DNA from: Candidatus Limnocylindrales bacterium
GTDB lineage: Bacteria; Chloroflexota; Limnocylindria; Limnocylindrales; CSP1-4
NCBI GenBank assembly: GCA_025450915.1
Contig: JANWLH010000039.1
Coordinates: 12,719 to 76,718, forward strand
DNA length: 64,000 nt
Direction of reading: 5' to 3'
The notes beneath the pieces are model-generated. The model did not search any database. It was given only the letters and a program-made list of their open reading frames with translations, and was not told where the DNA came from. This document shows, one piece after another, positions 1-54,800 of this stretch (positions are counted from its first letter, which is position 1; each line of letters begins with the position of its first letter). The position numbers were made by a program, and so were the translations under genes.

Positions 1-220
1 TGTAGACCAGCACCTGGGCAGCGGCCACGAGCGGCGCGCCGATCAGCACGTACAGCCCGGCCAGGGCGGCGAAGCTGACCATCATCGCCAGCCCGCAGCG
101 GATGATGTCGCGGAGGGTGACGACGAGGATGGCCGTGCCGATCATGACCGTGCTCAGGATGATGAACAGGAGGTCATCCCAGCCGAGGTTGATGAACGGC
201 ACAGCGTCCGGTATCGCCAC
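1..220 (-). CDS. nuoJ: NADH-quinone oxidoreductase subunit J, 5' end only (gene continues past window start)
   Basis: Reverse-complement translation VAIPDAVPFINLGWDDLLFIILSTVMIGTAILVVTLRDIIRCGLAMMVSFAALAGLYVLIGAPLVAAAQVLVY matches the NuoJ N-terminus (AQxLVY motif). GTG start at 220 is preceded by a GGAGAGAGGAG Shine-Dalgarno. Lies 70 nt downstream of the G' gene on the same strand. Confidence 0.7.
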   Translation of the reverse strand, partial: MAIPDAVPFINLGWDDLLFIILSTVMIGTAILVVTLRDIIRCGLAMMVSFAALAGLYVLIGAPLVAAAQVLVY

Positions 221-290
221 GCGACTCCTCTCTCCTTTGACCTTGCCGGGCGACCGGATCGGGACCTCCCGATCGGCCGTCCAGGATCAG

Positions 291-2918
291 CTACTTCGTG
301 TGAGCGTGACCCGGCCCCGCACCGGCCCCACCACCGGCGTGACCGTTGCCTGAGCCGTTGCCATGGCCATTGCCGGCCGCGCCGCCGGGACCGGCGGCCA
401 GCTCGGCGACGACCGCCGCAGGCAGGACCGGCAGCAGCCGGCCGGGATCGACGATCCGGCCATCTGCCCGGGCGCGGTCGAGCCAGTCGCGCTCGCGCCG
501 GATGTAGGTCACCTCGGTGTCCCGATCGACCATCGCCAGGGCCATCAGGTCGATCGTCGGCTCCTGGCGGCTGGCATGGGCGAGCTCGAAGTCCGCCCCG
601 TCGCGCAGAGCATCGTACGGGCAGGCATCGACGCAGATCCCGCACAGGATGCAGCGGCTCTCGTCGACTTCGTACTTCTGGAGGATCCGTGGCTTGGGCA
701 TGAGCGCGCCCGTCGGGCAGGTCTCGGCGCACCGCCCGCAGGAGACGCAGGGCGTGTCGTTCAGGCTCATGTCGAGCGGCGTCGTGACCAGGGTGTCGAA
801 GCCGATCCGCATGAAGTCGTAGCAGGCGGCGCCGACGACCTCCGCGCAGACCTGGGCGCAGCGCCCGCAGTCGATGCAGCGCGACGGCTCGCGCAGGATG
901 AATGCGTGGCTGTCGTCGCGAATGTAGTCGTGGTTGATCCCGGTAAACCGGTTCTCTGACACGCTCCGATAGCCCGCGCCCTGGTGGAAGCCGGGCTCGA
1001 GGGTCGGCAGGGTGGTGCCGTACTCGATGCCCAGGCGGCGCAGGTCACAGAAGCCGATCGCCTCGCAGGTGCACTGGAGGCAGCGGGTGCTCTCGGCGAC
1101 CGCCTCGGCCGGGCTGTACGGGATCTCGTACTCGACATAGCTCTTGTTGCGCAGCTCCGGGTCCATGGCCTTGAGCCGGTAGCGGGGCTCCTTGACCTCG
1201 CTCGTGAACGGCACGATCGAGAGGAACTCGGGCTGCGGCTCGGCCAGCGTCTGGCGGGTCTTGAGCGCACCCAGATCGAGGCCCTTGACGAACGCGTCGA
1301 CGGCATAGGCGCTGCGCCGGCCCTCCGCGACCGCGGCGACCACGGTTGACGCCCCGATCCGGACGTCGCCCGAAGCGAACACGCCCGGCCGGCCGGTACC
1401 GAAGGTGACCGCATCGGCCTTCAGCCGGTGCTGTTTCGTCGTCTCGAGTCCAGCCGAACCGGGTCCGATCCAGGCCAGGTCCGGCCCCTGGCCGATCGCC
1501 AGCAGGACCCGGTCGCATTCGATCGTGAACTCGGTGCCCGGCGCTGGTTCGGGTCGGCGCCGGCCCGAAGCGTCTGGCTCGCCCATCTTGTTGCGGATGA
1601 ACTCGACCCCATTGACCCGGCCCTTGGCGTCGACCAGGACCCGGATCGGCGCGGCCTGGAAGATCGCCGTGGCGCCTTCCTCGATCGCCTCGTGGACCTC
1701 GTCGGACGCGGGCATGTCCTTCATGTCGCGGCGATAGACGAGGGTCACCTCGGCCGCCCCCTGGCGAATCGACGTGCGGGTGCAGTCCATCGTGGTGAAG
1801 CCGCCGCCGATGACCACGACCCGCTTGCCGGCATGGCCCGGGAACGGCAGTCCCAGGGTCGCCGTCTTGAGGTAGTCGAGTCCCTCGAAGACGCCGTCGG
1901 CGTCCTCGTTCGGGACCCCCAGCTTGTTCGTCGCGTAGCAGCCGATCGTGACCAGGACCGCGTCGTAGCCCTGGCCCTGCAGGTCATCCAGGCTGAAGTC
2001 GCGGCCGAGGCCCTGGTTGCACTCGATCCGGCCGCCCAGGCGCGAGATGCTTTCGTACTCGGCCTCGAGGATCTCGACCTTGGGTAGCCGGTACTGGGGG
2101 ATGCCGTAGCGGAGCATCCCGCCGGGGGCCGCGTCACGCTCGAAGACCGTCACCTCGTGGCCGGCGATCAGCAGGTAATACGCGGCGGCCATGCCGGCCG
2201 GGCCCGAGCCGATCACGGCGACCCGCCGGCCGGTCTTCGGCTGGACCTCGTACGGGACCGGTGGATCAACGCCCTCGTTGAGCATCGCCCTGATCACCTG
2301 GTCGCCCGCGTACCGGTGGCTGTCCCGGATCGCGATCGCCTCGTCGACCTCGTCCCGCCGGCAGTGCTCTTCGCATGGGGCCGGACAGACCCGGCCGAGG
2401 ATGGACGGGAACGGGATCGTGCGCTTGAAGATCCGGCTCGACTCGCGCCAGTTGCCCTCGGCGTTCTGCTTGAGGAAGCCCGGGATGTCGATGTGACTGG
2501 GGCACTTGTTCTGGCAGGGCGGCAGGCAGTAGGCGTTGTGATCGCTGAAGATGAACTCGAGGTTCGTCTTGCGCAGGCGGCGCACCGCTTCGGTCTGGGT
2601 GGCGACCTTCATGCCTTCTTCGGCCGCCCGCGAGCAGGAGATCGGCGGATGCTCCTCGCCCTCGACCTCCACGACGCACATCCGGCAGGCACCGAAGCCG
2701 GGCAGCTTGGGTTCGTAGCACAGGGTCGGGATCTCGATCCCGTTGTCGCGGCAGACCTCGAGGATCGTCTGGCCGGCGCGACCCTCGACGACCCGCCCGT
2801 CGACCTCGACCCGGATCACCGGATCCGACTGCGGGCGCTGGGGCGCCTGGGTCGTGAGCAGGCGCTCGGACAGGGAGATCTCGGGCGGCGGGGCAGGGCG
2901 TGCGATCAGCTCGGTCAT
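291..2918 (-). CDS. Multidomain iron-sulfur flavoprotein at the NuoG position: NuoG-type [2Fe-2S] domain + GltD-like FAD/NAD(P)H module + C-terminal multi-[4Fe-4S] ferredoxin region; no molybdopterin-like domain; His/Gly-rich C-terminal tail
   Basis: N-terminal 2Fe-2S motif CYEPKLPGFGACRMCVVEV...ISCS. The GltD-like block matches E. coli GltD along its length (GRVCPAPCEEHC, GRRVAVIGSGPAGMAAAYYL, GGMLRYGIPQYRLPK, NEDADGVFEGLDYL, GKRVVVIGGGFTTMDCTRTSIRQGA, MGEPDASGRRRPE, VFASGDVRIGASTVVAAVAEGRR). C-terminal part carries CIDCGRCAQVC, CVSCGRCAETCP and CILCGICVDACP. Tail is GNGHGNGSGNGHAGGGAGAGPGHAH. Start overlaps the nuoF stop (ATGA). Confidence 0.8.
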   Translation of the reverse strand: MTELIARPAPPPEISLSERLLTTQAPQRPQSDPVIRVEVDGRVVEGRAGQTILEVCRDNGIEIPTLCYEPKLPGFGACRMCVVEVEGEEHPPISCSRAAEEGMKVATQTEAVRRLRKTNLEFIFSDHNAYCLPPCQNKCPSHIDIPGFLKQNAEGNWRESSRIFKRTIPFPSILGRVCPAPCEEHCRRDEVDEAIAIRDSHRYAGDQVIRAMLNEGVDPPVPYEVQPKTGRRVAVIGSGPAGMAAAYYLLIAGHEVTVFERDAAPGGMLRYGIPQYRLPKVEILEAEYESISRLGGRIECNQGLGRDFSLDDLQGQGYDAVLVTIGCYATNKLGVPNEDADGVFEGLDYLKTATLGLPFPGHAGKRVVVIGGGFTTMDCTRTSIRQGAAEVTLVYRRDMKDMPASDEVHEAIEEGATAIFQAAPIRVLVDAKGRVNGVEFIRNKMGEPDASGRRRPEPAPGTEFTIECDRVLLAIGQGPDLAWIGPGSAGLETTKQHRLKADAVTFGTGRPGVFASGDVRIGASTVVAAVAEGRRSAYAVDAFVKGLDLGALKTRQTLAEPQPEFLSIVPFTSEVKEPRYRLKAMDPELRNKSYVEYEIPYSPAEAVAESTRCLQCTCEAIGFCDLRRLGIEYGTTLPTLEPGFHQGAGYRSVSENRFTGINHDYIRDDSHAFILREPSRCIDCGRCAQVCAEVVGAACYDFMRIGFDTLVTTPLDMSLNDTPCVSCGRCAETCPTGALMPKPRILQKYEVDESRCILCGICVDACPYDALRDGADFELAHASRQEPTIDLMALAMVDRDTEVTYIRRERDWLDRARADGRIVDPGRLLPVLPAAVVAELAAGPGGAAGNGHGNGSGNGHAGGGAGAGPGHAHTK

Positions 2919-4204
2919 CGGGCGGCTTGCTCCGCGGCGGGCTGGAGCTTCGCGTCCAGCTCGGGTCGGAAGTATCGCATCACGCTGGTCATCGGAAGTG
3001 TCGCCAGGCGCTCGTGGTCACACAGGCCGCTGGCGACGATGTCCGCGGACAGGTCGCCGATCAGGTCCGCATCCGTCGGTCGCGGGGTCCCGGCATTGAT
3101 CCGGACCGCGATCTCCTCGAGGCGCCGAGTCCCGATCCGGCAGGGGATCGTCTTGCCGCACGCCTCGGTGGAGCAGAACCTGGTGAGGAGCTCGGCGAGC
3201 TCGAGGACGTCGGCGTTGGCGGCCGTGGCGACGATCGAGCCCGAGCCGATGTGCGCCCCGGCCGTCCGCAGGTCGTCGAAGGTATACGGGGTGTCGAGCA
3301 GGTCGGCCGGCAGGATTCCGCCCGATGGTCCGCCGACGAGGAGGGCCTTGGGCGGCGGGCCGGTCCGGGTCGTTGCCCCGACGAGGCCCAGGATCGTCCT
3401 GATGGTCGTGCCCAGCGGCACTTCGGCAACGCCCGCGCCGCCCGTCCCGCGGACGTGGACGAGGATCGTGCCCGGGGCATCAGGCGTGCCGATCGTCCGG
3501 AACTTGGCCGCACCTTCATGCATGATCCAGGCCGCCAGGGCCAGGGTCTGCACGTTCTGGACGACCGTTGGGCGGCCGAAGAGCCCGCGCTCGGCGGGAT
3601 GCGGTGGCCGCTGCTCGGGCTGGCCGCGCCTGCCCTCGAGCGCCTTGAGCAGGACGGTCTCCTCGCCGAGCATGTAGGCACCCTGGACCGGGCGGACCTC
3701 GACGTTGAGCTCATGGCCGGTGTCGAGGACGTCGCCACCGATGAAGCCGGCGTCCTCGGCGGCCCCGAGGGCGGCCTCGAGCCGCCGGATTGCCTCGGTC
3801 TCGGTCGCCCGGACGGCGATGATCGCGGTGTCGGCACCGATCGCCCAGGCGGCGATCGCGACGCCCTCGATCACGGCGTATGGGTCGCGCTCGATCAGGG
3901 TCGCATCGGTGCGCGTGGCGGGGTCCGCGCCGTAGCCGTTGGCCACGACGTAGCGCCGATCGGCAGGGGTGGTTGCGGCCAGGTGCCACTTGTCGGCCGT
4001 CAGGAAGCCCGCGCCGCCCCGACCGCGCAGGCCGGCCGCCCGGATCTCCGCGATGACGCCGGGAGGGGCGAGCCGTACCGCGATCCTGAGGCCCTCGAAG
4101 GCGCCGGCCTTGACGGCCGCGTCGAGATCGGTCGGATCCTTGGCGCCGGCCCGTCCCAGGATGGGCTGGGGCCAGCTCGCGGGTGTCTTGAGGAGGTCGG
4201 TCAT
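2915..4204 (-). CDS. nuoF: NADH-quinone oxidoreductase subunit F (51-kDa flavoprotein) with a variant N3-cluster motif
   Basis: FMN motif LRGRGGAGF and NADH motif YMLGEETVLLKALEGRRGQP are present. The N3 region reads STEACGKTIPCRIG...LCDH, where the canonical ESCGxCxPCR middle cysteine is absent. Confidence 0.85.
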   Translation of the reverse strand: MTDLLKTPASWPQPILGRAGAKDPTDLDAAVKAGAFEGLRIAVRLAPPGVIAEIRAAGLRGRGGAGFLTADKWHLAATTPADRRYVVANGYGADPATRTDATLIERDPYAVIEGVAIAAWAIGADTAIIAVRATETEAIRRLEAALGAAEDAGFIGGDVLDTGHELNVEVRPVQGAYMLGEETVLLKALEGRRGQPEQRPPHPAERGLFGRPTVVQNVQTLALAAWIMHEGAAKFRTIGTPDAPGTILVHVRGTGGAGVAEVPLGTTIRTILGLVGATTRTGPPPKALLVGGPSGGILPADLLDTPYTFDDLRTAGAHIGSGSIVATAANADVLELAELLTRFCSTEACGKTIPCRIGTRRLEEIAVRINAGTPRPTDADLIGDLSADIVASGLCDHERLATLPMTSVMRYFRPELDAKLQPAAEQAAR

Positions 4205-4208
4205 CGGA

Positions 4209-4877
4209 TCAGTGCACGCGTCCAGAGGGCTTCGTCGTGCCCGAGATCGCCTGGCCGAGGCCGCTCAGGTAGTCACCTTCGATGACCTCCCGGTCGGTGG
4301 CCGCCCCCTTGGATGGAGCCGGGGGTGCGAACCGGAGGTGGTCGTAGTACGTCGCCGTTCCGTAGACCATCGCGTACCAGGCCCCGGTCCCGAAGCTGAT
4401 CCGCTTGAGCGCCGCGACCGGCAGGTAGCCGTAGGCGGCCTGGGTCGCGGCAAGGATCTCGAGCATCCGCTTCGGATCGTGGTCGGCGTCGTGCAGGATC
4501 GCGTCGACCGGCCCGAGGTCGATCGGGCTCCAGTGCTCGTAGGCCACGTCGGGCACGGTCCGTCCGGCGCGGCGCAGGGCAGACTCCTCGCGCCGCTCGC
4601 CGTACGTCTCGGAGGCACCCCAGTGCACGGCGTAGCGACCCTTCGTGTCGACGCCGCCCATGTCGATGCACTCGATCGGGCAGGCCTGGGCGCACTGGAA
4701 ACAGGTCTCGCACTTGAGCGTGCCGTGCTCGTCGTAGAGGAGTTGCAGCCGGCCTCGGAACTTGGGCGAGACATCGGCCGGGACCTCCGGGTACAGGATC
4801 GTGGCCTTGGGCTGGAAGAACCGGAGCAGGGTCAGGCCCATCCCGCGCACGATGCCCAGGCCCGGGATCAGGCTCAT
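4209..4877 (-). CDS. Fusion protein: N-terminal NuoI-like domain with a single [4Fe-4S] motif + C-terminal NuoE N-terminal helical domain lacking the [2Fe-2S] thioredoxin-like domain
   Basis: YPEVPADVSPKFRGRLQLLYDEHGTLKCETCFQCAQACPIECIDM aligns to the NuoI first cluster region. The second CxxCxxCxxxCP motif is absent in all frames. C-terminal LEILAATQAAYGYLPVAALKRISFGTGAWYAMVYGTATYYDHLRF aligns to the NuoE N-terminal segment (..LPxxAxxxIxxxLGxxxxxVYGVATFYxxF). No Cys-bearing NuoE domain fits before the nuoF start 4 nt downstream. Confidence 0.7.
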   Translation of the reverse strand: MSLIPGLGIVRGMGLTLLRFFQPKATILYPEVPADVSPKFRGRLQLLYDEHGTLKCETCFQCAQACPIECIDMGGVDTKGRYAVHWGASETYGERREESALRRAGRTVPDVAYEHWSPIDLGPVDAILHDADHDPKRMLEILAATQAAYGYLPVAALKRISFGTGAWYAMVYGTATYYDHLRFAPPAPSKGAATDREVIEGDYLSGLGQAISGTTKPSGRVH

Positions 4878-4887
4878 GCCGCGGACC

Positions 4888-6228
4888 TCACCGGTTCACG
4901 ACCAGGATGGCGCCGGCGGTCACGAACAGGTTGAGCAGGGACGCCGGCAGCAGCCACTTCCAGGCAAAGCCCATGAGCTGGTCGATCCGGACCCGCGGCA
5001 GGGTGCCCCGCATCCACACGAACGTGAAGACGAAGACGTAGGTCTTGCCCATGAACCACAGCAGGCCCACGACCCAGTCGAAGCTCACGAAGGCCAGCCC
5101 GAGGACCGCGGCGACCGCGAGCAGGTTGAACAGCACGAAGCCGATGATCAGGGCCTGCCAGAACTTGACCTGGCTGTTGAGCAGGTAGAACGGCAGTCCG
5201 AGGACGACGATCGCCAGCGGCGGGCCGAGGGCCAGCAGGAAGAGCAGGCCGATCCCCAGACCGCCCGGATCGAGGCCGACGGTCACCGGCCAGGGCCAGT
5301 TGAACGGGGCGTTCCAGCCGCCCATGAACAGGGCGACGGTCAGGCCCGAGGCGATGAACACATTGACGTACTCGGCGAAGAAGAAGAAGCCGAAGCGCAT
5401 CCCCGAGTACTCGGTGGCGAAGCCGGCCACGATCTCCGAGTCGGCCTCGGTCAGGTCGAACGGCGTCCGGTTCGCTTCGGCGGTCACCGCGATGAAGAAG
5501 ATCACGAACGCCAGCGGCTGGCGAAAGACGTACCAGTCCAGGACGGTGCCGGCCTGCCCGAGGACGATCTTGTTGATGCTCAAGGTGCCCGCGAGGAGCA
5601 CCACCCCGACGACCGACAGGGTCAGCGGGATCTCGTAGCTGACGATCTGGGCCGCCGAGCGCAGGCCGCCCAGGAGCGAGTACTTGTTGAAGCTGGCCCA
5701 GCCGGCCATCAGCAGGCCGACGACGGTCAGGCCGCCCATCGCGAAGAAGTACAGCAGCCCGATGTTGAAGTCCTGGCCGAAGATTCCCGGGGCGAACGGC
5801 AGGACGAGCAGCGACATGACGCTCGACATGTAGACGACGACCGGCGCGAGGGTGAAGACCGGCACGTCGGCGCTCGTCGGGGTGAAGTCCTCCTTCATCA
5901 GGACCTTGAGCCCGTGGACCACCGAGAGCGCCGAGCCGAACGGGCCCACCCGGTCCGGGCCGTAGCGCAGGTTCATCAGCGCGATCACCTTCATCTCCAT
6001 GTAGATGATCAGGAAGGCGCTGGGCACGGTCATCAGGAGGACGATCGTGGCGGCCACCACGAACCGGACGAGCGGCAGGTTGTCGACCAGGAACTGGACG
6101 ACTGCCCCGCCGACCAGGGCGATCAGCACGGCCAGGCCGGCCGTCAGGACCGCTCCGAGGGGGATGACGACTGCCAGGATCTTGCCCGGGATCGTCAGCC
6201 GCTCCCAGGTCCTTCCAACCACGGTCAT
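4888..6228 (-). CDS. nuoH: NADH-quinone oxidoreductase subunit H
   Basis: Polytopic membrane protein with NuoH hallmarks (EYSGMRFGFFFFAEY, RTPFDLTEADSEIVAGF). Confidence 0.9.
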   Translation of the reverse strand: MTVVGRTWERLTIPGKILAVVIPLGAVLTAGLAVLIALVGGAVVQFLVDNLPLVRFVVAATIVLLMTVPSAFLIIYMEMKVIALMNLRYGPDRVGPFGSALSVVHGLKVLMKEDFTPTSADVPVFTLAPVVVYMSSVMSLLVLPFAPGIFGQDFNIGLLYFFAMGGLTVVGLLMAGWASFNKYSLLGGLRSAAQIVSYEIPLTLSVVGVVLLAGTLSINKIVLGQAGTVLDWYVFRQPLAFVIFFIAVTAEANRTPFDLTEADSEIVAGFATEYSGMRFGFFFFAEYVNVFIASGLTVALFMGGWNAPFNWPWPVTVGLDPGGLGIGLLFLLALGPPLAIVVLGLPFYLLNSQVKFWQALIIGFVLFNLLAVAAVLGLAFVSFDWVVGLLWFMGKTYVFVFTFVWMRGTLPRVRIDQLMGFAWKWLLPASLLNLFVTAGAILVVNR

Positions 6229-7464
6229 CTACTTGTCCACCCCGCCCATGACCGGATCGAGCGAGGCCATGATCGCCATCGTGTCGGCGATCAGGTTGCC
6301 GGGCGTCAGCAGGCCGACGGCCTGGAGGTGGACGAAGCTCGGGTCGTGGATCCGCATCCGATACGGCTGGTCCGTCCCGTCGCTGATCGCGTAGGTCGAG
6401 TACTGGCCGCGCGGGCCTTCGACCGCCGCGTAGGCCCGGCCCGGCCGGGGGCGGATGAGGCGGGGCATCTTGGCCATGACCGGCCCGTCGGGCATCTCGT
6501 GGAGGCACTGGTCGATGATCCGCAGGCTCTGCTTGATCTCGTCCATCCGGAGCAGGTAGCGGGCCAGGCAGTCACCCTCGGTCCGCGACGGAATGTCGAA
6601 GTCCAGCTCGGGATAGATGCTGTACGGGTGGGCCCGGCGGACGTCGAAGGGAACGCCGGTCGCCCGCAGGTTCGGGCCGGTCATGCACATGTTCAGCGCG
6701 GTGGCCGTGTCGATGACCCCCAGGCCCCGGGCGCGCCGGACGAAGATCTCGTTCTCGTTGAGCAGGGCGTTGTTCGAGTCGATCTGGTGGGTTGCCTTGC
6801 TCATCCAGGTGCCCAGCCGGCTCATGAACTCATGGTTCAGGTCGCCGTTCACCCCGCCGATCCGGAAGTAGTTGAAGAGCATCCGCTGGCCGGTCAGGGC
6901 CGCCAGCATCTCGACGATCTCGTCGCGCTCGATGAAGCTCCACAGGATCGGCGTCAGGCCGCCCAGGTCGAGCGCGAACCAGCCCATGAAGAGGGCGTGG
7001 CTGGCAATCCGGTTGAGCTCACCCGAGAGGACCCGGATGTACTCCGCCCGACGGGGCACCTGCACGTCGAGGAGCTTCTCGAAGGCGATCACCGGCGACC
7101 ACTCGCAGAAGAGCGAGCTGATGTACTCGAGAGGATCGGTGTAGCAGATCGCCTGGTGGTAGTCGGCGTTCTCGCACAGCTTCTCGACGCCCCGGTGGAG
7201 ATAGCCCAGGACCGGATCGAGATCGACGACGTTCTCGCCGTCGATCTTGAGGACGATCCGGAGAACGCCGTGGGTCGACGGGTGCTGAGGGCCCATGTTC
7301 ACGAACATCTCGCCGTCGCGGAGCGTGTAGAACTCGGCCTCGCGCTCCGTCCGGGGCGGGTACGGCGGGATCGGCTCGAACGTGCCGAGAGCCTCGTCGA
7401 GGGTGACCCGCGGATCGTCCGACGAGGCGTGGGCGGGGATGTCGAAGGGCGTTCGGGTGGTCAT
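6229..7464 (-). CDS. nuoD: NADH-quinone oxidoreductase subunit D (49-kDa)
   Basis: 411 aa with HRGVEKLCE and the NuoD C-terminal region. Abuts the nuoH start. Confidence 0.9.
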   Translation of the reverse strand: MTTRTPFDIPAHASSDDPRVTLDEALGTFEPIPPYPPRTEREAEFYTLRDGEMFVNMGPQHPSTHGVLRIVLKIDGENVVDLDPVLGYLHRGVEKLCENADYHQAICYTDPLEYISSLFCEWSPVIAFEKLLDVQVPRRAEYIRVLSGELNRIASHALFMGWFALDLGGLTPILWSFIERDEIVEMLAALTGQRMLFNYFRIGGVNGDLNHEFMSRLGTWMSKATHQIDSNNALLNENEIFVRRARGLGVIDTATALNMCMTGPNLRATGVPFDVRRAHPYSIYPELDFDIPSRTEGDCLARYLLRMDEIKQSLRIIDQCLHEMPDGPVMAKMPRLIRPRPGRAYAAVEGPRGQYSTYAISDGTDQPYRMRIHDPSFVHLQAVGLLTPGNLIADTMAIMASLDPVMGGVDK

Positions 7465-7481
7465 GGTCGGGCTCGTGCTCG

Positions 7482-8033
7482 CTAGCTCGACGAGGCCTGG
7501 CGGACGTGGGCGGCCGTCTCGGCGTTCGTCGGCCCGTGCGTCTGCTCCATCGGTCGAACGCCGCCACCGGGCGAGCGCGAGGCGTCATCGGGCAGGAAGA
7601 AGTCCTTGCGCAGCGGGAAGCTCGTGTAGTCCGGCGGCATGTAGATCCGGCGCAGGTCGCGATTGCCCTCGAAGGTGATCCCGAACATGTCGTACGCCTC
7701 GCGCTCCATCCACTCGGCGCCCTTCCACAGGAACGTGACCGAGGGGACCCGCGGGTCGTCGCGGGAAAGGCCGTCGGCGATCACCCGCAGCCAGTCGGCC
7801 GACGAATCGCTCCACAGGTGATAGACAGTCTGCATCGTCGTGCCGGTGTCGACGCCGGCCAGGTCCGAGAGGAGCCGGAAGCGGAGATCGGGCTCATCGT
7901 GGAGGGCGAGCATCACCTCGGGCAGGTCACCGGGCGCGATCCGGATCTCCGTCTCGTCATGGCGCTGGCGCACCGGGCCGGTGAGCTCCTCGCCGAACCG
8001 GGCCTCGAGGCGGCGCCGCAGGGCTCGATCCAC
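7482..8033 (-). CDS. nuoC: NADH-quinone oxidoreductase subunit C (30-kDa), separate from NuoD
   Basis: 183 aa, NuoC-like (..[32 protein letters not shown]..). Confidence 0.85.
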
Positions 8034-8738
8034 CTACAGGTCCTCGGGCACGGTGGGGCCGATCGGCCGGTCGGGCCAGTGGCCGCGGCGGTCCTTGATC
8101 AGCTGCTGGAGCTTCATCATCCCGTAGATCAGGCCCTCGGGGCGGGGCGGGCAGCCGGGCACGTAGACATCGACCGGCATGATCCGGTCGATCCCCTGGA
8201 TCGTGCTGTAGCTGCGCTTGTAGCGGCCACCCGAGCAGGTGCAGTCACCCATCGCCACGCACCATTTCGGCTCGGGCATCTGCTCCCAGAGACGGACGAG
8301 CGGGCCGGCCATCTTCGTCGTGCAGGTCCCGGCCACGATCAGGACGTCGGCCTGGCGCGGCGATGCCCGGAACGGGAACATTCCCCAGCGGTCCATGTCG
8401 TTCTTGCTGGTCGCCGCGGACATCATCTCGATGGCGCAGCAGGCCAGCCCCGAGAGCAGCGGCCAGAGGCTGTTGGCCCGGATCAGGTCGAGGACGATAT
8501 CGGCCTTGGTCGGGATGATCTCGAGCGGCCCGGCCCAGCGAGCGTTGTCGCGCCGGCCGAGACCCGATTCCTCGAACTCGCGCAGGTGGGTGATGTCCGA
8601 TTCCTGGCCGCCGTTGTAGGCGACCGGGTTGCTCGACTGCCAGAGCGTGTTCGGGACGATCACGGGCTCGACGAGATCGCGGCCCTCGGTGATGACCGCG
8701 GGCAGGTTGCCCACTGGTCCGTCGGGCTTCAGCGCCAC
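8034..8738 (-). CDS. nuoB: NADH-quinone oxidoreductase subunit B (20-kDa, N2 cluster) with ~60-aa N-terminal extension
   Basis: [30 protein letters not shown] motifs. Start overlaps the nuoA stop. Confidence 0.9.
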
Positions 8739-9085
8739 GTGAGAACCCCCTTGCGCCAGGCGTAGGCGAGGCCCAGCAGCAGGATGCCCACGAACAGCAG
8801 CATGCTCACGAAGCCCCCCAGCAGGACGCTCCGGAAGACGATCGCCCAGAGGTAGATGAAGATCACTTCGATGTCGAACGCCACGAACAGCAGGGCGTAG
8901 ATGTAGAACGACAGGCCGAATCGGCCGTGGGTGTCGCCGAACGTGTCGATCCCCGACTCATACGGCAGGCCCTTGTGGACGTCGCCACGGTTGCGGTGGG
9001 AGATCAGCCACGCCGCACCGATCGTGAGGAACACGAACGAGACACCGGCGACGCCGAACCCGACGATGTACCAGATCCCGGTCAA
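8729..9085 (-). CDS. nuoA: NADH-quinone oxidoreductase subunit A
   Basis: 118 aa, 3 TM helices, NuoA-like. First gene of the nuo operon, with 300 bp of intergenic sequence upstream. Confidence 0.85.
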
Positions 9086-9391: not shown

Positions 9392-10591
9392 CTACCGTGC
9401 GGGTTGGCTCCGGCCCAGGCCCATGAGCGGCGGTTGCGGATCGAGGCCGCGCCCGAGGAGGACCGCCCGGAACCCGCCCAGCGCGGCCGGATCCAGGAGC
9501 CGGGCAATCGCCGAGCGCAGGCCGAGCCACTCCTCCATCGACGTCTTCGGATTCGAGCGAACCCGGTCGACCAGCTCCTCGAGTCCGCAGCCCACCAGGA
9601 GCTCGGCCTGGCTCACCTCGCCGAGCACGGTGAGCTCGTGGGTCCGAGCGGCGGCCTCGAGCGCGGTCAGGTCGACGTGGGCCGTCAGGTCCTGGCGGCC
9701 GACCGCGATGAACGGGTCGGCGTGGGCGCGCTGGCCGGAGTACGCCCGCAACGTTCCGCCGCGCCGGGCCGGATCGTAGAGCGCCGGCGCCTGATGGCCG
9801 TAGTCGATGACCAGGACGAGGCCCTGCTCGAGGTCCGCCGCGACCCCGGCCAGCCAGGGTTCGACCTCGAGGCAGACCTCGCCGACCTGGCCGTCGAGCA
9901 GCGTGACGCCGTCCTCGTCGAGCCGGGCGGCCAGCGCATCGGTCGACGGTTCGCCGGGCTGCTCGACCAGCCTGCCGGCAGCGTCATCCCAGGCCACGAA
10001 CAGCTCCCGAAGCCGGCAGCCGTCCTGCTCGACACGATGGACGGGCAGGGCATCGAGGAACTCGTTGGCCAGGACGACGCCCGTGAACCGGCTCGGGCCG
10101 CCCGCCCGCCTGGTCCTGGCGGCCGGCCCGAGGCGTTCGACGGCCTCGGTGCGGCGCACCTCGTTGATCTCGACTGGCTCGTAGCGCAGCACGTCCCCGA
10201 GGCCCGAGTCGTCGGCGCGCAGGCCATCGAGGATCGCTGCGGCGAGCGTCCCGGATCCCGCACCGTACTCGCGCATGACGAACGGGTCGGGTCGCTCGAG
10301 GCGCCGCCAGACCTCGTCCACCTGCCGGCCGATCACTGCCCCGAAGATCGGATGGAGCTCCGGCGCCGTGAGGAAGTCGCCACTCCGGCTCGGCCGGTCG
10401 GCGGCCACCCGGTAGTAGCCGTGGTCGGGGTCATACAGCGCGATCGCCATGAACCGGGCGAACGTCAGCGGCCCGCTTGCAGCGATCTCGGCCCGGATGC
10501 GCTCGATGAGCACCGGCTCGCTGTCCGTTGCCAGGGGCCCGGCCGGCTCATCCCGGCGGAGCCCGGGCTCGAAGGGCTTCGGTCCGCTCAA
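9392..10591 (-). CDS. MidA/NDUFAF7-family (DUF185) class I SAM-dependent methyltransferase
   Basis: GDFLTAPELHPIFGAVIG...REYGAGSGTLAAAIL matches the MidA/NDUFAF7 signature (GDFxTAPE + GxGxG SAM motif). Immediately upstream of nuoA on the same strand. Confidence 0.75.
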   Translation of the reverse strand: MSGPKPFEPGLRRDEPAGPLATDSEPVLIERIRAEIAASGPLTFARFMAIALYDPDHGYYRVAADRPSRSGDFLTAPELHPIFGAVIGRQVDEVWRRLERPDPFVMREYGAGSGTLAAAILDGLRADDSGLGDVLRYEPVEINEVRRTEAVERLGPAARTRRAGGPSRFTGVVLANEFLDALPVHRVEQDGCRLRELFVAWDDAAGRLVEQPGEPSTDALAARLDEDGVTLLDGQVGEVCLEVEPWLAGVAADLEQGLVLVIDYGHQAPALYDPARRGGTLRAYSGQRAHADPFIAVGRQDLTAHVDLTALEAAARTHELTVLGEVSQAELLVGCGLEELVDRVRSNPKTSMEEWLGLRSAIARLLDPAALGGFRAVLLGRGLDPQPPLMGLGRSQPAR

Positions 10592-15615: not shown

Positions 15616-16100
15616 TGGAGATTCGACGGTTCGGGATCGGCCAGCGACGGCCCGACGGTCCCGCCGGAACGCACAACGTCGAGGCTGCGGTCATCGAATC
15701 AGGGCCGCGCGGCGTGGTCGCCGAGCTGGCCTTCGCGCGCCACGCGGCGATCGAGACGCACACCAATCCGAACACCGCCTGGTTCGTGGTCATCGAGGGC
15801 GGCGGCTTCGTGACAGTGGGTGCGGACCGGGCCCGGGTCTTCGCGGGCGAAGCCGTCCTGTGGCCGGCCGGGGTGCCCCACGGCGCATCGACCGAGCTGT
15901 CCGAGATGCGGGCGATCGTGGTCGAGTTCCCGGTCGCCGACCTTGCCCTGGGTCCCGGCGCGGCGATCCTGGATGCCGGCGTGCTGCCCTCGGCGCCCTC
16001 GGCTCGCTCGGAGGCCGCGAAGGTCGTTGCCCCGGCCGACGGGCACCTCGTTGATGAGCGGCCGGCGCCGTACGACCCCCGCCACGGCGAGCCGCGCTAG
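15616..16100 (+). CDS. Cupin-domain protein
   Basis: Cupin motifs ..AIETHTNPNTAWFVVIEGGG.. and ..GEAVLWPAGVPHGASTE... GTG start 6 nt after the upstream stop. Confidence 0.6.
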
Positions 16101-16170
16101 GCTGAACGGCCGCGTACGGGCTCGGGCTCCGTTGCGGCCCGACGCCCAGGAGCCGCCGATGCGGGACGTG

Positions 16171-16350
16171 CACCCAGTACAACAGAACCCCGTTTTCGAC
16201 CCGTTCCTTCGGCGGGGTGCCCTGCCCGCAGCATCGCATCCGGCGATTTCATGCCGCGCCACGCTCACGGCGGAATGATTCCTGCCGCCGAGGCGCGAGG
16301 CGACTGGGTCGAACCCCTGGAAATCGCCCGTTTGTTGTTCTGGGTACACG
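16171..16350. repeat. Imperfect long inverted repeat (arms ~16171–16203 and ~16305–16350) enclosing nested GC-rich stems; candidate structured element
   Basis: Arm 1 is CACCCAGTACAACAGAACCCCGTTTTCGACCC. The reverse complement of arm 2 is GTACCCAGAACAACAAACGGG...GGTTCGACCC, sharing ACCCAG, ACAACA, AAC and TTCGACCC blocks. Internal CTTCGGCGG / CCGCCGAGG pairing also present. Confidence 0.35.
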
Positions 16351-16612
16351 CATTGCCGTGATCGTGTTCGCCGCGGCCCGGGCATGGCCAGGGTCTGTCA
16401 GCCGTGGGGCCCCGGGAAGCGTGGGCACCGAGGGGATGGGATGGTGGCCGGTCGAGCGACGTGCGTCGCGACTCTCCTCGCCAACGTTGCCGGACCCCTC
16501 GACGACGAACAGACCACTCGCATGGCGGGCGGGCGCTCGTCCGCCGGAAGGCGCCAATCTCATCACCCGGCTGATGTCGCCGACGTTTGTGCCGGCCCAA
16601 GCTGGGCCGCAA

Positions 16613-16763
16613 TACCACGACTAACCTCAAGTCGACGGGTTGTGCGGGGCTCAGGCCCGGATCGGGACCAGGTGGCGCCGTCCTGGCCACTGGAATACCA
16701 CGACGATTCTTGGAACGAGGCGGAAAGGCGTTGGCAGCCGTCCGGCCAAGGTTAGTCGTGGTG
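16613..16763. repeat. MITE-like element, copy A (~151 bp) with perfect 13-bp terminal inverted repeats
   Basis: Left TIR ACCACGACTAACC at 16614–16626; right TIR GGTTAGTCGTGGT at 16750–16762. Internal TIR-like ACCACGACGATTC. Confidence 0.65.
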
Positions 16764-16804
16764 CGAGGCCAGGTCCAACGAGCGTCGCGTCTCGGACCCG
16801 GCGG

Positions 16805-16952
16805 TACCACGACTAACCTTATGCGGCGGGTTGAGCACGGCTCAGGACCCGAATCGGGACCCATGGGCCATCCTGGCCGCTGGAACACCACGACGATTCG
16901 TAGAACGAATCGTCGGGCGTCGCGAGCCGTCGGCCTAAGGTTAGTCGTGGTG
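16805..16952. repeat. MITE-like element, copy B (~148 bp), ~75–80% identical to copy A, same perfect TIRs
   Basis: Left TIR ACCACGACTAACC at 16806–16818; right TIR GGTTAGTCGTGGT at 16939–16951. Conserved cores GCTCAGGNCCGNATCGGGACC and TCCTGGCCNCTGGAANACCACGACGATTC. Internal hairpin ACGATTCG-TAGAA-CGAATCGT. Confidence 0.65.
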
Positions 16953-16986
16953 TCGGGGCGCCAGAGGGGTCGGGGCGCCAGAGGGG
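16952..16986. repeat. 17–18-bp direct repeat x2 (GTCGGGGCGCCAGAGGGG TCGGGGCGCCAGAGGGG)
   Basis: Direct reading, immediately 3' of MITE-like copy B. Confidence 0.8.
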
Positions 16987-17025
16987 CCGGGCCAGCGCCA
17001 GAATGGCGTCCGGAGCGCAGGACAG

Positions 17026-17699
17026 CTATGCCTCTACCGCCAGCTCTGCGACGAGCGCGCCGAGCTGGCCGAGGATCCGGGCGGTGGCGCCCCAGACGTG
17101 GAGGCCGTCGATCCGGTAGCCGCCGTAGCGCAACGGCCAGTCGCGAACCTGGCGCTCGACGATCTCGACCGGCGCGTCGGGCAGGAACGCGTCGAGGGGC
17201 GCCCAGATGATCCGGGCCACCTCCGACTCGAACGCCTGCAGCTCAGGCGAACGGCGGGCAATCCCGAGAACGGGCGTGATGCTGAAGCTGCTGACCGGAA
17301 TTCGAAGGGGATCGAGCCGGCCGATCACCTCGACCTCTGCTGCGGCCGGGTCCAGACCAACCTCCTCCTCCGCCTCGCGCAGGGCGGTCGCCTCGAGGTC
17401 GGCGTCCCCGGGCTCGACCTTCCCACCCGGGAACGAGACCTCGCCGCTGTGCATGCCCTCGTAGGTTGCCCGCTCGGTGAGGATGACGACTGCCGTGCCG
17501 TCAACGCTCGGGGCGACGAGCACGAGCACCGCGGCGGGCCGGTCGCCGGGCACAGCCTCGAGACGCAGCTCGCTCCGCGGTCGCCCGTCGGTGAAGACAG
17601 GCATCAGCACGACGGGGCCAGGGGGCAAGCGACCCCTGGCACCAACGGCCGTTCGATCCGGCAGCCGGGAGAGTCTCGCGGCCGCCTCGTCGAATTGCA

Positions 17700-45711: not shown

Positions 45712-46919
45712 TGACCGTCGGGCGGCAGTGGATCACCCGGGCCGCGCCCGGGACGCTCTCCGCTGCCGCCGCGATCGTCGAGGGCGCGGCCGCCCACGCG
45801 GTCCTGATCGCGGGGCCGCCGTCGGTCGGCAAGATGACCCTTGCCGATGACCTCGCCGCCGGCTTGCTGTGCGTTGCTCCGGATCCGGCGAATCGGCCCT
45901 GTCGCGCATGCCGGGGCTGCCGGCTCGTCGCCGGGGCCAATCATCCCGACCTGCACCGGCTGGGTCCCGAAGGGCCCGGCGGCCAGGTGGTGATCGGCGA
46001 CTCGGCGCGGCCCGCCGGGCGTGGCGTTCGCAACCTCGTCGCCAAGCTCGCCTACCTGCCGGTCGAAGGCGGCCATCGCGTCGCGATCGTCGAGCACGCC
46101 GAGCGGATGAACGAGGATGCCCAGAACGCCCTCCTGAAGACGCTCGAAGAGCCTCCGCCGCGGACCACGCTCATCCTGTCCGCCGACGAGGAGGACCGTC
46201 TCCTGCCGACGGTCCGCTCACGCTGCGTCCGGTTGCGCATGGCGCCGCTCGGCATCCGGGCGATCGAGGATCTGCTCGTCGAGCGGGGCGTCGCCGATGC
46301 CTCGGTCGCTGCCCGGCTTGCCCGGATCGCGGCCGGCCGGCCGGGCGTCGCGATGGCCTATGCCCGGCTTCCGGAAGCCGTGACGATCCACGACGAGATC
46401 GCCCGCAGCCTGCTCGACCTCCTGTCGGCGCCGGTGTCGGCGCGGCTCGTCTCCGGGCGGGAGCTGATCGAGCGAGCCGTCGCCCTCGATACCGCGCTTC
46501 GCCCAGTCGAGCCGGCGGTCGTCCCGGCGGCCCGTCTGCCGCGCGGATCTTCGAAGGGTCCTCGCCCGGCAACCCCGGTCCCAACCGCTGATGAGGCCGA
46601 CGCCGGAGGCGAGGCGCCGGCCACCGGCAAGCGCTCACCCGCCGAGCGGCGGCGAGGCGTGCTGGTCCTGCTCGACCTGTGGCGCGACGTGGCCCTCGAC
46701 CTGGCGATTGCCGCCCTGGGTGGCCGCCACGAGGTCCGGGACCCGGCCCTGCTGGACGACCTGGTCGCGAGCGCGAGCATTGTTCGGCCCCAGCAGATCG
46801 GCGCATTCCTCGTCCACCTCGACCGGATCGCCGAGCTCGTCGAGGGCAACACCGGGCCGGAGCTGGCGATCGACGTTCTCGTCCTCGCCTGGCGTCCCGC
46901 CGCCTCCGCCGCGGCCTGA
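45712..46919 (+). CDS. holB: DNA polymerase III subunit delta-prime
   Basis: HAVLIAGPPSVGKMTLA, PCRACRGCRLVAGANHPDL zinc module, NALLKTLEEPPPRTTLIL, VRSRCVRL. Confidence 0.85.
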
Positions 46920-46922
46920 GGC

Positions 46923-47243
46923 GTGGATCCCGGTTCGTCGACCGGCTCGGCGTTCGAGCGCCTCGAAGCGACGGTCACCGGCCGCGTCCAGGCCGTGGGC
47001 TTCCGTGTCTTCGTCGCGAGCCGGGCCGCAACGCTGGGCCTGACCGGCTGGGTCCGGAACGGCTCCGACGGCTCGGTCGAATGCGTCGCCGAGGGGCGCC
47101 GGGCGGATCTCGAGATGCTTCTCGCCGCCCTCGAGCTTGGCCCATCCGGTGCTCGGGTCGATGCTGTCAGCCGTTCCTGGACGGTTGCCACGGGATCATT
47201 CGACCGCTTCTCGATCGCCAGCGGCTGGACCTCCGGCGACTGA
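46923..47243 (+). CDS. acyP: Acylphosphatase
   Basis: VTGRVQAVGFRVF...GLTGWVRNGSDGSVECVAEG matches the acylphosphatase signatures. Confidence 0.8.
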   Translation: MDPGSSTGSAFERLEATVTGRVQAVGFRVFVASRAATLGLTGWVRNGSDGSVECVAEGRRADLEMLLAALELGPSGARVDAVSRSWTVATGSFDRFSIASGWTSGD

Positions 47244-47523
47244 CCCCGGGCAGATTGCCGGACGTTCCTCTGGCAAAACGCGATTCTTCACGGGCGTATG
47301 GTCGGGACTGGGCTCTTTCAGTTCCCCGGACACGGCCGCCTCGCCAGATTCCGTGCTCAACCGAGGCTTGAACGGAGCTCCGCAGGATCCTCGATCGGTC
47401 GCCACCGACATAAGCCGGCCTCATCTCGTGCGTTGACAAAGAACGTCGCAACGAGCCGTTGCGTGGCAAGCCGATCCGGCTCACGATCGCCGCGGCCAGA
47501 CCGACGCTGGGAGGGGGATCCCG

Positions 47524-47804
47524 TGAAGCGGCTTCGCAGCAAGGCAGCCCGCGCATTCGTGCTCTGGACGCTGCTCATCCTTGTCGTGGCGATTCTCCTG
47601 TCCGTGCAGGCGACCGGCAGCCTGATCGTTGCGGGACAGGACTGCTTCTTCAACTACCCGGCGGTGCCCTGCCCGAGCCCAACCGATCCCGCGTTCGTCC
47701 GGCTCACGTTCGTATTCTTCGGACTCCCGCTGATCTGGCTCCTCGGGATCGGCGTTGCCACCGCCGCGCGAGCTTTCCGTAGAAGGGGCCGCGGTTCGCA
47801 ATAG
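47524..47804 (+). CDS. Small membrane protein (2 predicted TM helices)
   Basis: GTG start follows a GGGAGGGGG Shine-Dalgarno. FVLWTLLILVVAILLSV and FVFFGLPLIWLLGIGVATAA. Confidence 0.45.
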
Positions 47805-47948
47805 CGCCGGGGTAGTTAGCAGTCATCGTGGCCGCGGCTGGATCCAGCGCCTGATGGTCTGGCGGTAATCGCCCGTGCGTGGCGGAGGCACGGGGCGCGA
47901 CTTGCGGCCGCTGGTCTGACCGAATCTGTCCAGAAGTGCCCCGACCAG

Positions 47949-47988
47949 CTACCCGGTGGGTAGGGCCACCGGTCGGGCAACTGCCCGG
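47949..47988. terminator. Two short GC-rich hairpins (CTACCC-GGT-GGGTAG; CGGGCA-AC-TGCCCG) in the convergent intergenic gap; possible bidirectional terminator
   Basis: Direct reading. No U-tract, as expected for high-GC genomes. Weak call. Confidence 0.25.
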
Positions 47989-48000
47989 GATTGCGTTGGA

Positions 48001-49253: not shown

Positions 49254-49559
49254 ATGGCTGGACCCACGATCGGCGCGCTCCTCGAGTCGGCAGTTGCCGC
49301 CGAGGAGGCCCTCGCCGAGCTCGGCGAGACGATCGAGGACGAGTGGTCGTACGTGAATGACCTGCGCCAGGCCTGGACCGATCGGCTCGACGAGGTCGCG
49401 GCTGGGCCGACGGGAGCGCGCGAGGCCAGCCCGGAGATCGTCGACGCGATCGAGCTGGCCATCGAAGAGGCCGGCCTCGTCCACGATCCCCATCGGGCGA
49501 TCGACTGGCTCTCCACCTTGCCCCAGGTAGTCCTCCTCGCCGCCGAATCGCTGGCCTGA
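49254..49559 (+). CDS. Small acidic hypothetical protein (pI very low), translationally coupled to downstream gene
   Basis: 101 aa rich in Glu/Asp/Ala. Stop/start overlap (ATGA) with the 49559 gene. Confidence 0.45.
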   Translation: MAGPTIGALLESAVAAEEALAELGETIEDEWSYVNDLRQAWTDRLDEVAAGPTGAREASPEIVDAIELAIEEAGLVHDPHRAIDWLSTLPQVVLLAAESLA

Positions 49560-54763: not shown

Positions 54764-54800
54764 CCCGCGCGAGCCGAACTCGGACGCCGGCTGGGGCATC

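Follow-up and report, generated by a model that had tools for sequence, protein, structure and literature searches.

Where do electrons enter a complex I whose input arm departs from the canonical NuoEFG module? The question is raised by a window of 64,000 nucleotides (the whole stretch of DNA that was analysed: GenBank assembly GCA_025450915.1, contig JANWLH010000039.1, positions 12,719 to 76,718) from Candidatus Limnocylindrales bacterium, a member of the Chloroflexota. Its positions 1-9085 carry a nuo operon with three unusual genes, here called I', F and G', between nuoH and nuoJ. An earlier note on this DNA had proposed a complex I variant in which NADPH (reduced nicotinamide adenine dinucleotide phosphate) enters through a GltD-like domain binding flavin adenine dinucleotide (FAD). 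Our analysis supports that proposal through homology to NfnA/StnC and through conserved motifs. We favour a reading in which the locus encodes a 13-gene, proton-pumping complex I whose input arm is a cut-down NfnABC/Stn-type (Bfu) cassette lodged in nuoI, and which probably oxidises NADPH. Its most likely function would be to pass electrons from NADPH, and perhaps also from NADH, to menaquinone with proton pumping and without electron bifurcation.

The operon and its genes

The G+C content of the window is about 70%, and many spurious long open reading frames (ORFs) are therefore present. According to the codon-position GC profile, the real genes of positions 1-9085 all lie on the minus strand and are read from 9085 to 1; the G+C content at third codon positions (GC3) is 0.9-0.99 in these frames. 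A plus-strand reading, such as the ORF at 4762-7485 (907 amino acids), was rejected by the same measure as a shadow of the minus-strand genes. The nine genes are:

8729 to 9085, minus strand: nuoA, 118 amino acids (aa); PF00507 Oxidored_q4, E 7.6e-31
8034 to 8738, minus strand: nuoB, 234 aa; TIGR01957, 217.7 bits against a cutoff of 142.7
7482 to 8033, minus strand: nuoC, 183 aa; PF00329, E 1.9e-36
6229 to 7464, minus strand: nuoD, 411 aa; PF00346, E 3.3e-87; NF004739, 432.5 bits against a cutoff of 360
4888 to 6228, minus strand: nuoH, 446 aa; PF00146, E 2.4e-102; NF004741, 315 bits against a cutoff of 305
4209 to 4877, minus strand: I', 222 aa; NuoI N-half and NuoE-type N-terminal domain
2915 to 4204, minus strand: F (NuoF-like), 429 aa; PF01512 and PF10589
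291 to 2918, minus strand: G', 875 aa; [2Fe-2S] domain, GltD/NfnL domain, NuoG/HydA-type Fe-S region and NuoI C-half
1 to 220, minus strand: 5' part of nuoJ, running off the window; 100% identity by tblastn with NuoJ of L001

Clear Pfam and NCBIfam matches on one strand bear out the earlier description of A, B, C, D and H as intact and contiguous. In NuoB, direct sequence reading finds the ligand motifs of cluster N2 (CC100/101, C166 in MGDCTCSGG and C196 in PGCPP). The junctions are as tight as had been described: A and B overlap by 10 nt, B and C as well as D and H abut, I' and F are 4 nt apart, and F and G' overlap in an ATGA. Furthermore, 7 contigs that were assembled independently, from one NCBI metagenome-assembled genome and several Joint Genome Institute (JGI) metagenomes, carry an identical G' in the same operon. 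On these contigs the operon continues with nuoJ-K-L-M-N, of which the earlier note had suggested looking for nuoK-L-M-N. The locus is thus a complete 13-gene operon, nuoA-B-C-D-H-I'-F-G'-J-K-L-M-N, of which the window holds the first nine genes, and the mis-assembly that had been considered as a refutation is excluded. The complex I core subunits A, B, C, D, H and J-N are encoded together, with I as two halves. Two side observations concern the core genes. NuoB is extended at its N-terminus by about 70 residues, and its start codon is uncertain (226 aa in the JGI gene calls instead of 234); NuoH is longer than usual at 446 aa, with a Pfam match that begins only at residue 61.

The order of the operon had been read as NuoE/F/G genes rearranged into its middle. 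The order itself stands, but the genes are those of an NfnABC/Stn cassette, being closest to NfnA, NfnB and NfnC. A NuoE-like gene, a NuoF-like gene and a [2Fe-2S]+GltD+NuoG-like gene follow one another exactly as in the native stnA-B-C order, so that the odd arrangement is explained by a Bfu-family cassette sitting in its native C-B-A (stnA-B-C) order. If the cassette is subtracted and the two NuoI halves are re-joined, what is left is an 11-gene operon, A-B-C-D-H-I-J-K-L-M-N.

Two halves of NuoI on two polypeptides

The second NuoI motif, and with it cluster N6b, had been described as absent. This does not hold, since the motif and the following DFE...RQE are found at the C-terminus of G' (residues 744-790). 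The two halves lie at:

4614 to 4877, minus strand: I' residues 1-88, NuoI N-half, with the first motif C56xxC59xxC62xxxC66P
483 to 695, minus strand: G' residues 742-812, NuoI C-half, with C756xxC759xxC762xxxC766P and then DFE..RQE

Residues 3-81 of I' align with residues 6-86 of Escherichia coli NuoI, through the first CxxCxxCxxxCP motif, which is kept in 76/76 Limnocylindria species. In G', the final folded segment (residues 744-790), with the sequence RCILCGICVDACPYDALRDGADFELAHASRQE, matches positions 71-116 of TIGR01971. For a join test, I' residues 1-88 and G' residues 742-812 were linked and scored on the same model. The I' half alone gives 50.6 bits (positions 1-66) and the G' tail alone 47.3 bits (positions 71-116), while the joined halves give 99.3 bits over positions 1-116 in one stretch. 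The joined sequence also aligns in one stretch with E. coli NuoI 6-131 and Arabidopsis TYKY 23-147, and the cut falls within the hairpin that joins one half of the ferredoxin fold to the other. There is no other NuoI-like sequence in the 64-kb window or in any of 83 related loci, of which 78 have exactly two NuoI half-matches and the remaining 5, which are truncated, have one. Both motifs are invariant among the homologs, on two different polypeptides. These alignments indicate that NuoI is split into two complementary halves, one fused to an NfnC/NuoE N-terminal domain and the other forming the C-terminus of an NfnA-like protein.

G' already has a complete motif pair of the HydA/NuoG type (C681... 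and C724...), which makes its third motif an orphan half; the single motif of I' is another. We infer that the two orphan half-ferredoxin motifs would assemble across I' and G' into clusters N6a and N6b; as NuoI is split and not truncated, both clusters are most likely present. An alternative assignment, in which the second and third motifs of G' form a dicluster domain of their own (Fer4_7, residues 724-770), is less likely, because the first and second motifs already make up a Fer4_Nqo3/HydA-type pair. In addition, the third motif and its flanks match NuoI positions 71-116 specifically.

G' as a probable NADPH module

The remaining parts of G' are:

2592 to 2819, minus strand: G' residues 34-109, [2Fe-2S] domain; PF13510, E 4.9e-21; equivalent of A1/N1b
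1281 to 2543, minus strand: G' residues 126-546, GltD/NfnL-like domain; PF14691 and PF07992; NF009454, 545 bits
699 to 1121, minus strand: G' residues 600-740, NuoG/HydA-type Fe-S region; PF22117 Fer4_Nqo3 and Fer4 family matches
294 to 407, minus strand: G' residues 838-875, Gly/His-rich low-complexity tail; direct sequence reading

The earlier assignment of a GltD-type module to the G position is confirmed by these Pfam and NCBIfam matches and by Foldseek. The domain has sites for two [4Fe-4S] clusters, for FAD and for NAD(P)H, and its fold matches NfnL and GltD with template modelling (TM) scores of 0.78-0.80. The likeness extends well beyond this domain. Residues 34-766 of G' align with Csac NfnA (9bov_A, E 5e-159), and comparable matches are obtained with Tsi NfnA (9n5u_A, E 1e-141) and with StnC of Sov (Sporomusa; 8oh5_C, E 4e-141). 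The same three proteins are the top Foldseek matches of the confident part of the AlphaFold model of G', followed by NfnL, GltD and dihydropyrimidine dehydrogenase.

By alignment to NfnA/StnC, the cluster ligands of G' are C67, C78, C81 and C95 (A1); C131, C135, C139, C178, C182 and C186 plus His (A6 and A7); C613, C616, C618 and C624 (A3); C681, C684, C687 and C734 (A2); and C724, C727, C730 and C691 (A4). The NuoI C-half motif begins 21 residues past the last A4 ligand. The Lys ligand of A7 in NfnA/StnC aligns with the invariant His201 of G'. K165 of G' was considered for this role and rejected, as it is K165 of Tsi NfnA (chain position 173) that aligns with His201. All 32 cysteines of G', together with His127 and His201, are conserved in 119 Limnocylindria and 120 Thermoleophilia sequences, and both clades also retain the FAD motif GxGxxG and the NADPH motifs GGGFxxMD and YRR..MPA. 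About 9 sequences that form a sub-branch around the Thermoleophilia protein P0138 have degenerate NADPH motifs (GDGFAAAE; YRR replaced by SPC).

G' lacks both the molybdopterin-like C-terminal domain of NuoG and the formate-dehydrogenase-like C-terminal domain with cluster A5. It ends about 110 residues past the A4 motif, whereas NfnA/StnC run 250-480 residues further past this region. Taken together, the alignments indicate that G' has the architecture of NfnA/StnC: an N-terminal [2Fe-2S] domain, an NfnL/GltD domain and NuoG-like clusters. As a side observation, the Gly/His-rich tail ends in …GNGHGNGSGNGHAGGGAGAGPGHAHTK, varies in length and composition among the Limnocylindria and is missing from P0138; it may serve to bind metal or as a linker.

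The C-terminal part of I' and the F subunit

The second domain of I' is:

4317 to 4526, minus strand: I' residues ~118-187, NuoE/NfnC/StnA-type N-terminal helical domain; PF01257 positions 2-63 of 145

Its best PDB matches are NfnC (9bov_C, 3.2e-7) and StnA (8oh5_A, 1.8e-6). No [2Fe-2S] cysteines follow this domain in I', so that the C1 (N1a) site is missing, and the tail is Cys-free and variable in 71/79 Limnocylindria species. The loss of N1a had thus been read correctly, while the statement that nuoE is lacking is only half right: the cluster domain is gone, but the helical domain of NuoE/NfnC persists, fused in I'.

F aligns only to residues 107-513 of NfnB (9bov_B) and is without both terminal Fe-S domains of BfuB. 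It scores 312.7 bits with NfnB 9BOV_B, 302.5 with Tsi NfnB, 297.8 with HydB and 295.9 with StnB, against at most 244 bits with any complex I NuoF (221.5 with Thermus Nqo1). As the earlier note had pointed out, one N3 cysteine is substituted: the motif ESCGKCxxC reads EACGKTIPC, with Thr352 at the second Cys, a position that is Thr or Ser in 78/79 Limnocylindria species. Further changes affect the nucleotide site. NADEGDP becomes NGYGADP in 71-75/77 species, replacing the acidic pair beside the flavin, and NNVET becomes xNVQT in 75/79. C344, near the altered N3 site, is conserved (71/79), and so is a C-D-H-E motif (CDHE). A vestige of the BfuB linker, CPAGVC(H/R)P, occurs in 62/79 species and has been lost from the window's F.

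F is also the least conserved subunit of the peripheral arm within the Limnocylindria, with a median identity of 64% against 85% for NuoD and 82% each for G' and NuoB; NuoF of canonical complex I usually ranks with the best conserved subunits. The ratio of nonsynonymous to synonymous substitution rates (dN/dS) was approximated by the Nei-Gojobori method, which under the extreme GC3 bias is rough and serves for ranking only; G' and NuoD each came to 0.18, I' to 0.27 and F to 0.41. The NADPH-binding subunit G' is under the strongest constraint. The dN/dS of F is below 1 yet the highest, which indicates that F is maintained under relaxed constraint.

Does NADH nevertheless remain the main donor? 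The divergent F would then feed N3, A1, A2 and NuoI, and GltD would be an accessory entry for NADPH equilibration or overflow. It could act as a built-in non-bifurcating transhydrogenase; in Stn/NfnABC the same wire links FAD to flavin mononucleotide (FMN). F does retain the FMN phosphate loop GRGGAG (77/77) and GAYxxGEET with Y177 and GEET (79/79), as well as R/K199, N217 and T220; among these residues is the Glu that discriminates against NADPH in E. coli NuoF. It also keeps the three other N3 cysteines in 77-78/79 species, and its dN/dS of about 0.41 indicates purifying selection. We nonetheless regard this alternative as unlikely, though it is the strongest of those considered: the poorest conservation in the arm, the replaced acidic pair, the altered NNVET and the lost N3 cysteine all fall on F, while G' ranks with the most conserved subunits and keeps all its cofactor motifs. 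F still looks able to bind FMN, with its nucleotide site and N3 motif remodelled, and beside NADPH oxidation at G' it may provide an added NADH entry or be largely structural.

Distribution and reductive evolution

The homolog survey, which used one genome per GTDB species, found a G' relative in at least 486 species genomes. The best 80 of these at least 486 relatives are 79-91% identical to G' and nearly all labelled Chloroflexota or Limnocylindria. Gene order, which the earlier note had suggested comparing among related genomes, is invariant in the 83 loci apart from truncations at contig ends; 81 of them are from Limnocylindria and two, L088 and L089, from Thermoleophilia.

A locus this widespread is hard to reconcile with an artefact or with a decaying paralog beside a canonical nuoA-N operon, the refutation that the earlier note had raised. 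Such a view could appeal to the missing N1a, the lost N3 cysteine and the missing or changed acidic residues of the FMN site. Yet the arrangement recurs in the 7 independent assemblies, in 83 loci from two phyla and, as G' relatives, in at least 486 species genomes; none of the 32 G' cysteines varies among 239 sequences; every gene tested has a dN/dS in the range 0.18-0.41; and the operon sits among housekeeping genes. Conservation and dN/dS values below 1 contradict decay, and we consider this explanation next to impossible.

When the library was clustered at 50% identity, the Limnocylindria family collapsed to few clusters. Among the best 150 representatives of this clustering, P0138 (40-43% identity) was the lone distant member with a NuoI tail, beside Limnocylindria fragments. 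The relatives of P0138 form a second large clade, labelled Thermoleophilia (Actinomycetota). The operon, split NuoI included, recurs in the Thermoleophilia loci L088 and L089. Their I' carries a full NuoE-type domain with four [2Fe-2S] cysteines, and their F (L088 8084-9994, L089 8088-10004) is a Bfu-type B subunit of 636-638 aa with an N-terminal [2Fe-2S] domain and a C-terminal 2x[4Fe-4S] domain. The F motifs are canonical (GRGGAGFP(T/A), CNGDEGDPGAF, NNVET and ESCGKCVPC), with L089 departing at GESTAL and in the PP(F/Y)PA segment. By motif, the complete BfuBC core is present in L088 and L089 and incomplete in F and I' of the window.

This contrast bears on a further alternative, in which the complex would be a Nuo-Bfu that confurcates or bifurcates electrons, using reduced ferredoxin together with NAD(P)H, as predicted for the Geobacter type. 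The cassette is of the Bfu family by homology, its Thermoleophilia kin keep the whole BfuBC core, and a Nuo-Bfu has been proposed by Schut et al. (2022; PMC9304861). The window lineage, on the other hand, has no NuoE/NfnC cluster domain (71/79 species have Cys-free tails of I'), no terminal Fe-S domains in F and an altered B1/N3. Since the C1 and B2-B5 sites are missing, no electron bifurcation is expected there; homologs without B2-B5 are listed as non-bifurcating by Schut et al. (2022). For the window lineage we hold bifurcation to be very improbable. The Thermoleophilia form, by contrast, is potentially a bifurcating module joined to a proton pump through the split NuoI, and the comparison suggests that the window lineage is a reduced derivative that has lost the NuoE cluster domain and the terminal domains of BfuB.

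Two side observations come from the survey. Six proteins (P0129, P0153, P0162, P0185, P0188 and P0223) are StnC/FdhA-like, about 810-850 aa long, without a NuoI tail, and all end in ...NNIDHCARL; they are probably formate-dehydrogenase-type subunits with a 2Fe2S+GltD N-terminus whose gene calls were cut at an in-frame UGA selenocysteine codon. P0243 (1049 aa) combines 2Fe2S, GltD-like and NuoG-like parts and a ferredoxin motif with a C-terminal domain resembling the thiamine pyrophosphate-binding beta part of 2-oxoacid:ferredoxin oxidoreductase.

A model of electron transfer

In Stn/NfnABC, NADPH reduces a non-bifurcating FAD, and the wire runs FAD-A7-A6-A3-A2-A1-B1-FMN. A2-A4-A5 is a dead-end side branch in these enzymes and a functional wire in formate dehydrogenases (PMC10482914, PMC12018979, PMC11829005). 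For the window lineage, we propose that an 11-gene operon received an Nfn/Stn cassette within its nuoI gene and that each end of the cassette became fused in frame. NADPH would be oxidised at the FAD of G', and electrons would pass by way of A7, A6 and A3 to A2. They may leave through A4, the former dead-end branch being re-used, or from A3, as in the canonical transfer from N5 to N6a. With the motifs of I' and G' pairing as N6a/N6b, electrons would then reach N2 and menaquinone and so drive proton pumping, with F placed on a branch through A2, A1 and N3. Pairing of the NuoI halves across I' and G' would anchor the input module covalently to the Q-module at either side. In canonical complex I, the C-terminal domain of NuoG makes much of the contact with the Q-module, and the double NuoI tether plausibly stands in for this large domain.

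An energetic argument can be added from Schut et al. (2022; PMC9304861), made there for Nuo-Bfu. Menaquinone has an E0' of about -74 mV and NADH a potential of about -280 mV in cells, so that this pair offers little driving force and a more reducing donor helps. We infer, by analogy, that the argument may extend to NADPH here.

Electrons might instead run the other way. Complex I is reversible, Stn and NfnABC physiologically make NADPH, and the FAD-to-FMN wire is retained; the complex could then be a device by which the proton-motive force drives electrons uphill from quinol to NADP+ and so supplies NADPH for biosynthesis, or chiefly a membrane-anchored NADPH/NADH transhydrogenase. However, the window's genes are those of ordinary heterotrophic housekeeping and of substrate uptake and oxidation, and no lithoautotrophic sign of a need for reverse electron flow lies within the 64 kb. 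As for transhydrogenation, a plain FAD-to-FMN short circuit without bifurcation would dissipate the NADPH/NADH disequilibrium. We consider such a role improbable.

Several points weigh against the NADPH-oxidising complex I that we favour. The assembly of N6a/N6b across two proteins is proposed from sequence complementarity, and the joined NuoI, at 99.3 bits, stays below the curated TIGR01971 cutoff of 113.05. An AlphaFold model of the joined halves (single sequence) has a mean predicted local distance difference test (pLDDT) score of 44 and is uninformative, and the model of G' (141-sequence alignment) is confident for residues 30-555 but has a pLDDT of about 28 for residues 616-811. The replacement of the A7 Lys by H201 implies that the redox tuning of the NADPH branch differs. 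Because F keeps GRGGAG, GAYxxGEET, three N3 cysteines, C344 and CDHE at a dN/dS below 1, NADH could be the main substrate and GltD secondary. Menaquinone is assumed as the quinone type.

Relation to known systems

The closest relatives of the cassette are the NfnABC/StnABC enzymes (Csac 9BOV/9BP5, Sov 8OH5 and Tsi 9N5U; 9BOV/9BP5 is the NfnABC of Caldicellulosiruptor), which share its three-gene order. G' has all A1, A2, A3, A4, A6 and A7 positions and the FAD and NADPH motifs, F is closest to NfnB/StnB, and the C-terminal part of I' to NfnC/StnA. Nfn and Stn are soluble, whereas the window's cassette is fused at both ends to NuoI halves within a nuo operon. The NuoI C-half takes the place of their formate-dehydrogenase-like domain with A5, and His201 that of the A7 Lys; C1, B2-B5 and the terminal domains of BfuB are gone, and both B1 and the FMN site have changed.

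With canonical complex I, the window's operon shares the eleven subunits of the Q- and P-modules, the N2 ligands, both NuoI motifs, an N1b-type [2Fe-2S] cluster, clusters at the N4 and N5 positions and a NuoF-type flavoprotein. It differs in carrying NuoI on two polypeptides, in having no N1a, N7 or NuoG molybdopterin-like domain, in the inserted GltD/NfnL FAD-NADPH domain with two extra clusters, and in the order H-I'-F-G'-J instead of D-E-F-G-H-I-J.

Nuo-Bfu complexes have been predicted in Geobacter, Deferribacteres, Planctomycetes and Nitrospirae; according to Schut et al. (2022; PMC9304861), they comprise 14 subunits (A-N), with the BfuABC genes in mid-cluster in place of NuoEFG. A complex I-like operon with a Bfu-type ABC input is common to both, and the Thermoleophilia kin even keep the BfuBC core. 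For Nuo-Bfu, which belongs to other phyla, neither a GltD/NADPH domain nor a split NuoI is mentioned in the passages of that paper that were consulted; the window's operon has 13 genes, and its lineage is without a bifurcating core. A GltD-like NAD(P)H flavoprotein on a complex I-type core has a precedent in the Mbx-like operons of Degli Esposti (2015; PMC4758237), where it is said to replace NuoI; in the window it would be wired through NuoI instead.

Swapped inputs are known elsewhere. Cyanobacterial and chloroplast NDH-1 uses ferredoxin, Fpo takes F420H2 through FpoF, and in Campylobacter and Helicobacter NuoE/F are replaced. The window's operon resembles these and the Mbx-like systems in that a conserved 11-subunit core takes different electron-input modules. 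To our knowledge, none of NDH-1, Fpo, the Campylobacter and Helicobacter complex I and the Mbx-like operons splits NuoI or uses an Nfn-Bfu cassette. Cultured Thermoleophilia have been reported with a 14-gene NADH dehydrogenase locus, and we found no description of the split-NuoI/Nfn-cassette arrangement in Limnocylindria or Thermoleophilia in the open-access literature. Complex I with an alternative input module is known. No precedent was found for two features, a split core subunit used as tethers and an Nfn-type NADPH module.

Neighbouring genes

Directly upstream of nuoA lies one further gene of interest:

9392 to 10591, minus strand: Methyltransf_28 gene; PF02636, E 4.7e-51

It occupies this position in 65/67 Limnocylindria loci and in neither of the 2 Thermoleophilia loci. 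We take Methyltransf_28 to be the NDUFAF7/MidA family, with a mitochondrial complex I assembly factor that methylates NDUFS2/NuoD, and the neighbour is thus a possible complex I assembly factor.

The other 55 kb of the window contain no nuo paralog by tblastn with all 13 subunits. They carry housekeeping genes, including an ABC transporter of the branched-chain amino-acid type. At 53267-59048 (plus strand), a glycerol kinase (FGGY family) is followed by three genes resembling an anaerobic-type GlpABC glycerol-3-phosphate dehydrogenase (DAO with a BFD-like 2Fe-2S domain; FAD_binding_2; CCG and Fer4), a set that would be another quinone-linked dehydrogenase nearby. ARAGORN calls a tRNA-Gly(GCC) at 49865-49939 (plus strand), inside 49559-50221 (plus strand), which is scored as coding by codon usage; at the gathering threshold, Rfam places no tRNA at this site or elsewhere in the 64 kb. 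In two further intervals, each about 1 kb long (16100-17026 and 46919-48001), there is neither a gene by codon-usage scan nor an Rfam match.

Implications for Limnocylindria and Thermoleophilia

Complex I is among the most thoroughly studied enzymes. Its core of 11 subunits is regarded as nearly invariant, and the known diversity concerns the choice of docking module. In this operon NuoI, an Fe-S subunit of that core, is itself cut in two, and its halves would hold a foreign module as a pair of covalent tethers. The genes are also easily overlooked. In current annotation I' is unnamed and G' is labelled 'FAD-dependent oxidoreductase' or 'formate dehydrogenase major subunit', so that automated pipelines may score such genomes as lacking NuoI, NuoE and NuoG.

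More broadly, and with less confidence than for the operon itself, we tentatively suggest that Limnocylindria respire by means of a proton-pumping NADPH:menaquinone oxidoreductase, that their Thermoleophilia kin link NADH, NADPH, ferredoxin and quinone, and that a reductive series lies between the two. The Thermoleophilia version would join a flavin-based bifurcating module to a proton pump in a naturally occurring fusion, and its comparison with the Limnocylindria would amount to an evolutionary experiment on which parts of the Bfu core bifurcation needs. If the series holds, the succession from Thermoleophilia through most Limnocylindria to the window's lineage shows a bifurcating module becoming a simple respiratory input arm. 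If the NADPH route is true, abundant soil bacteria conserve energy directly from NADPH, which is a stronger reductant than NADH in cells and would help menaquinone-linked proton pumping. Models of redox balance and energy yield for the uncultured Limnocylindria of soil and freshwater would then change.

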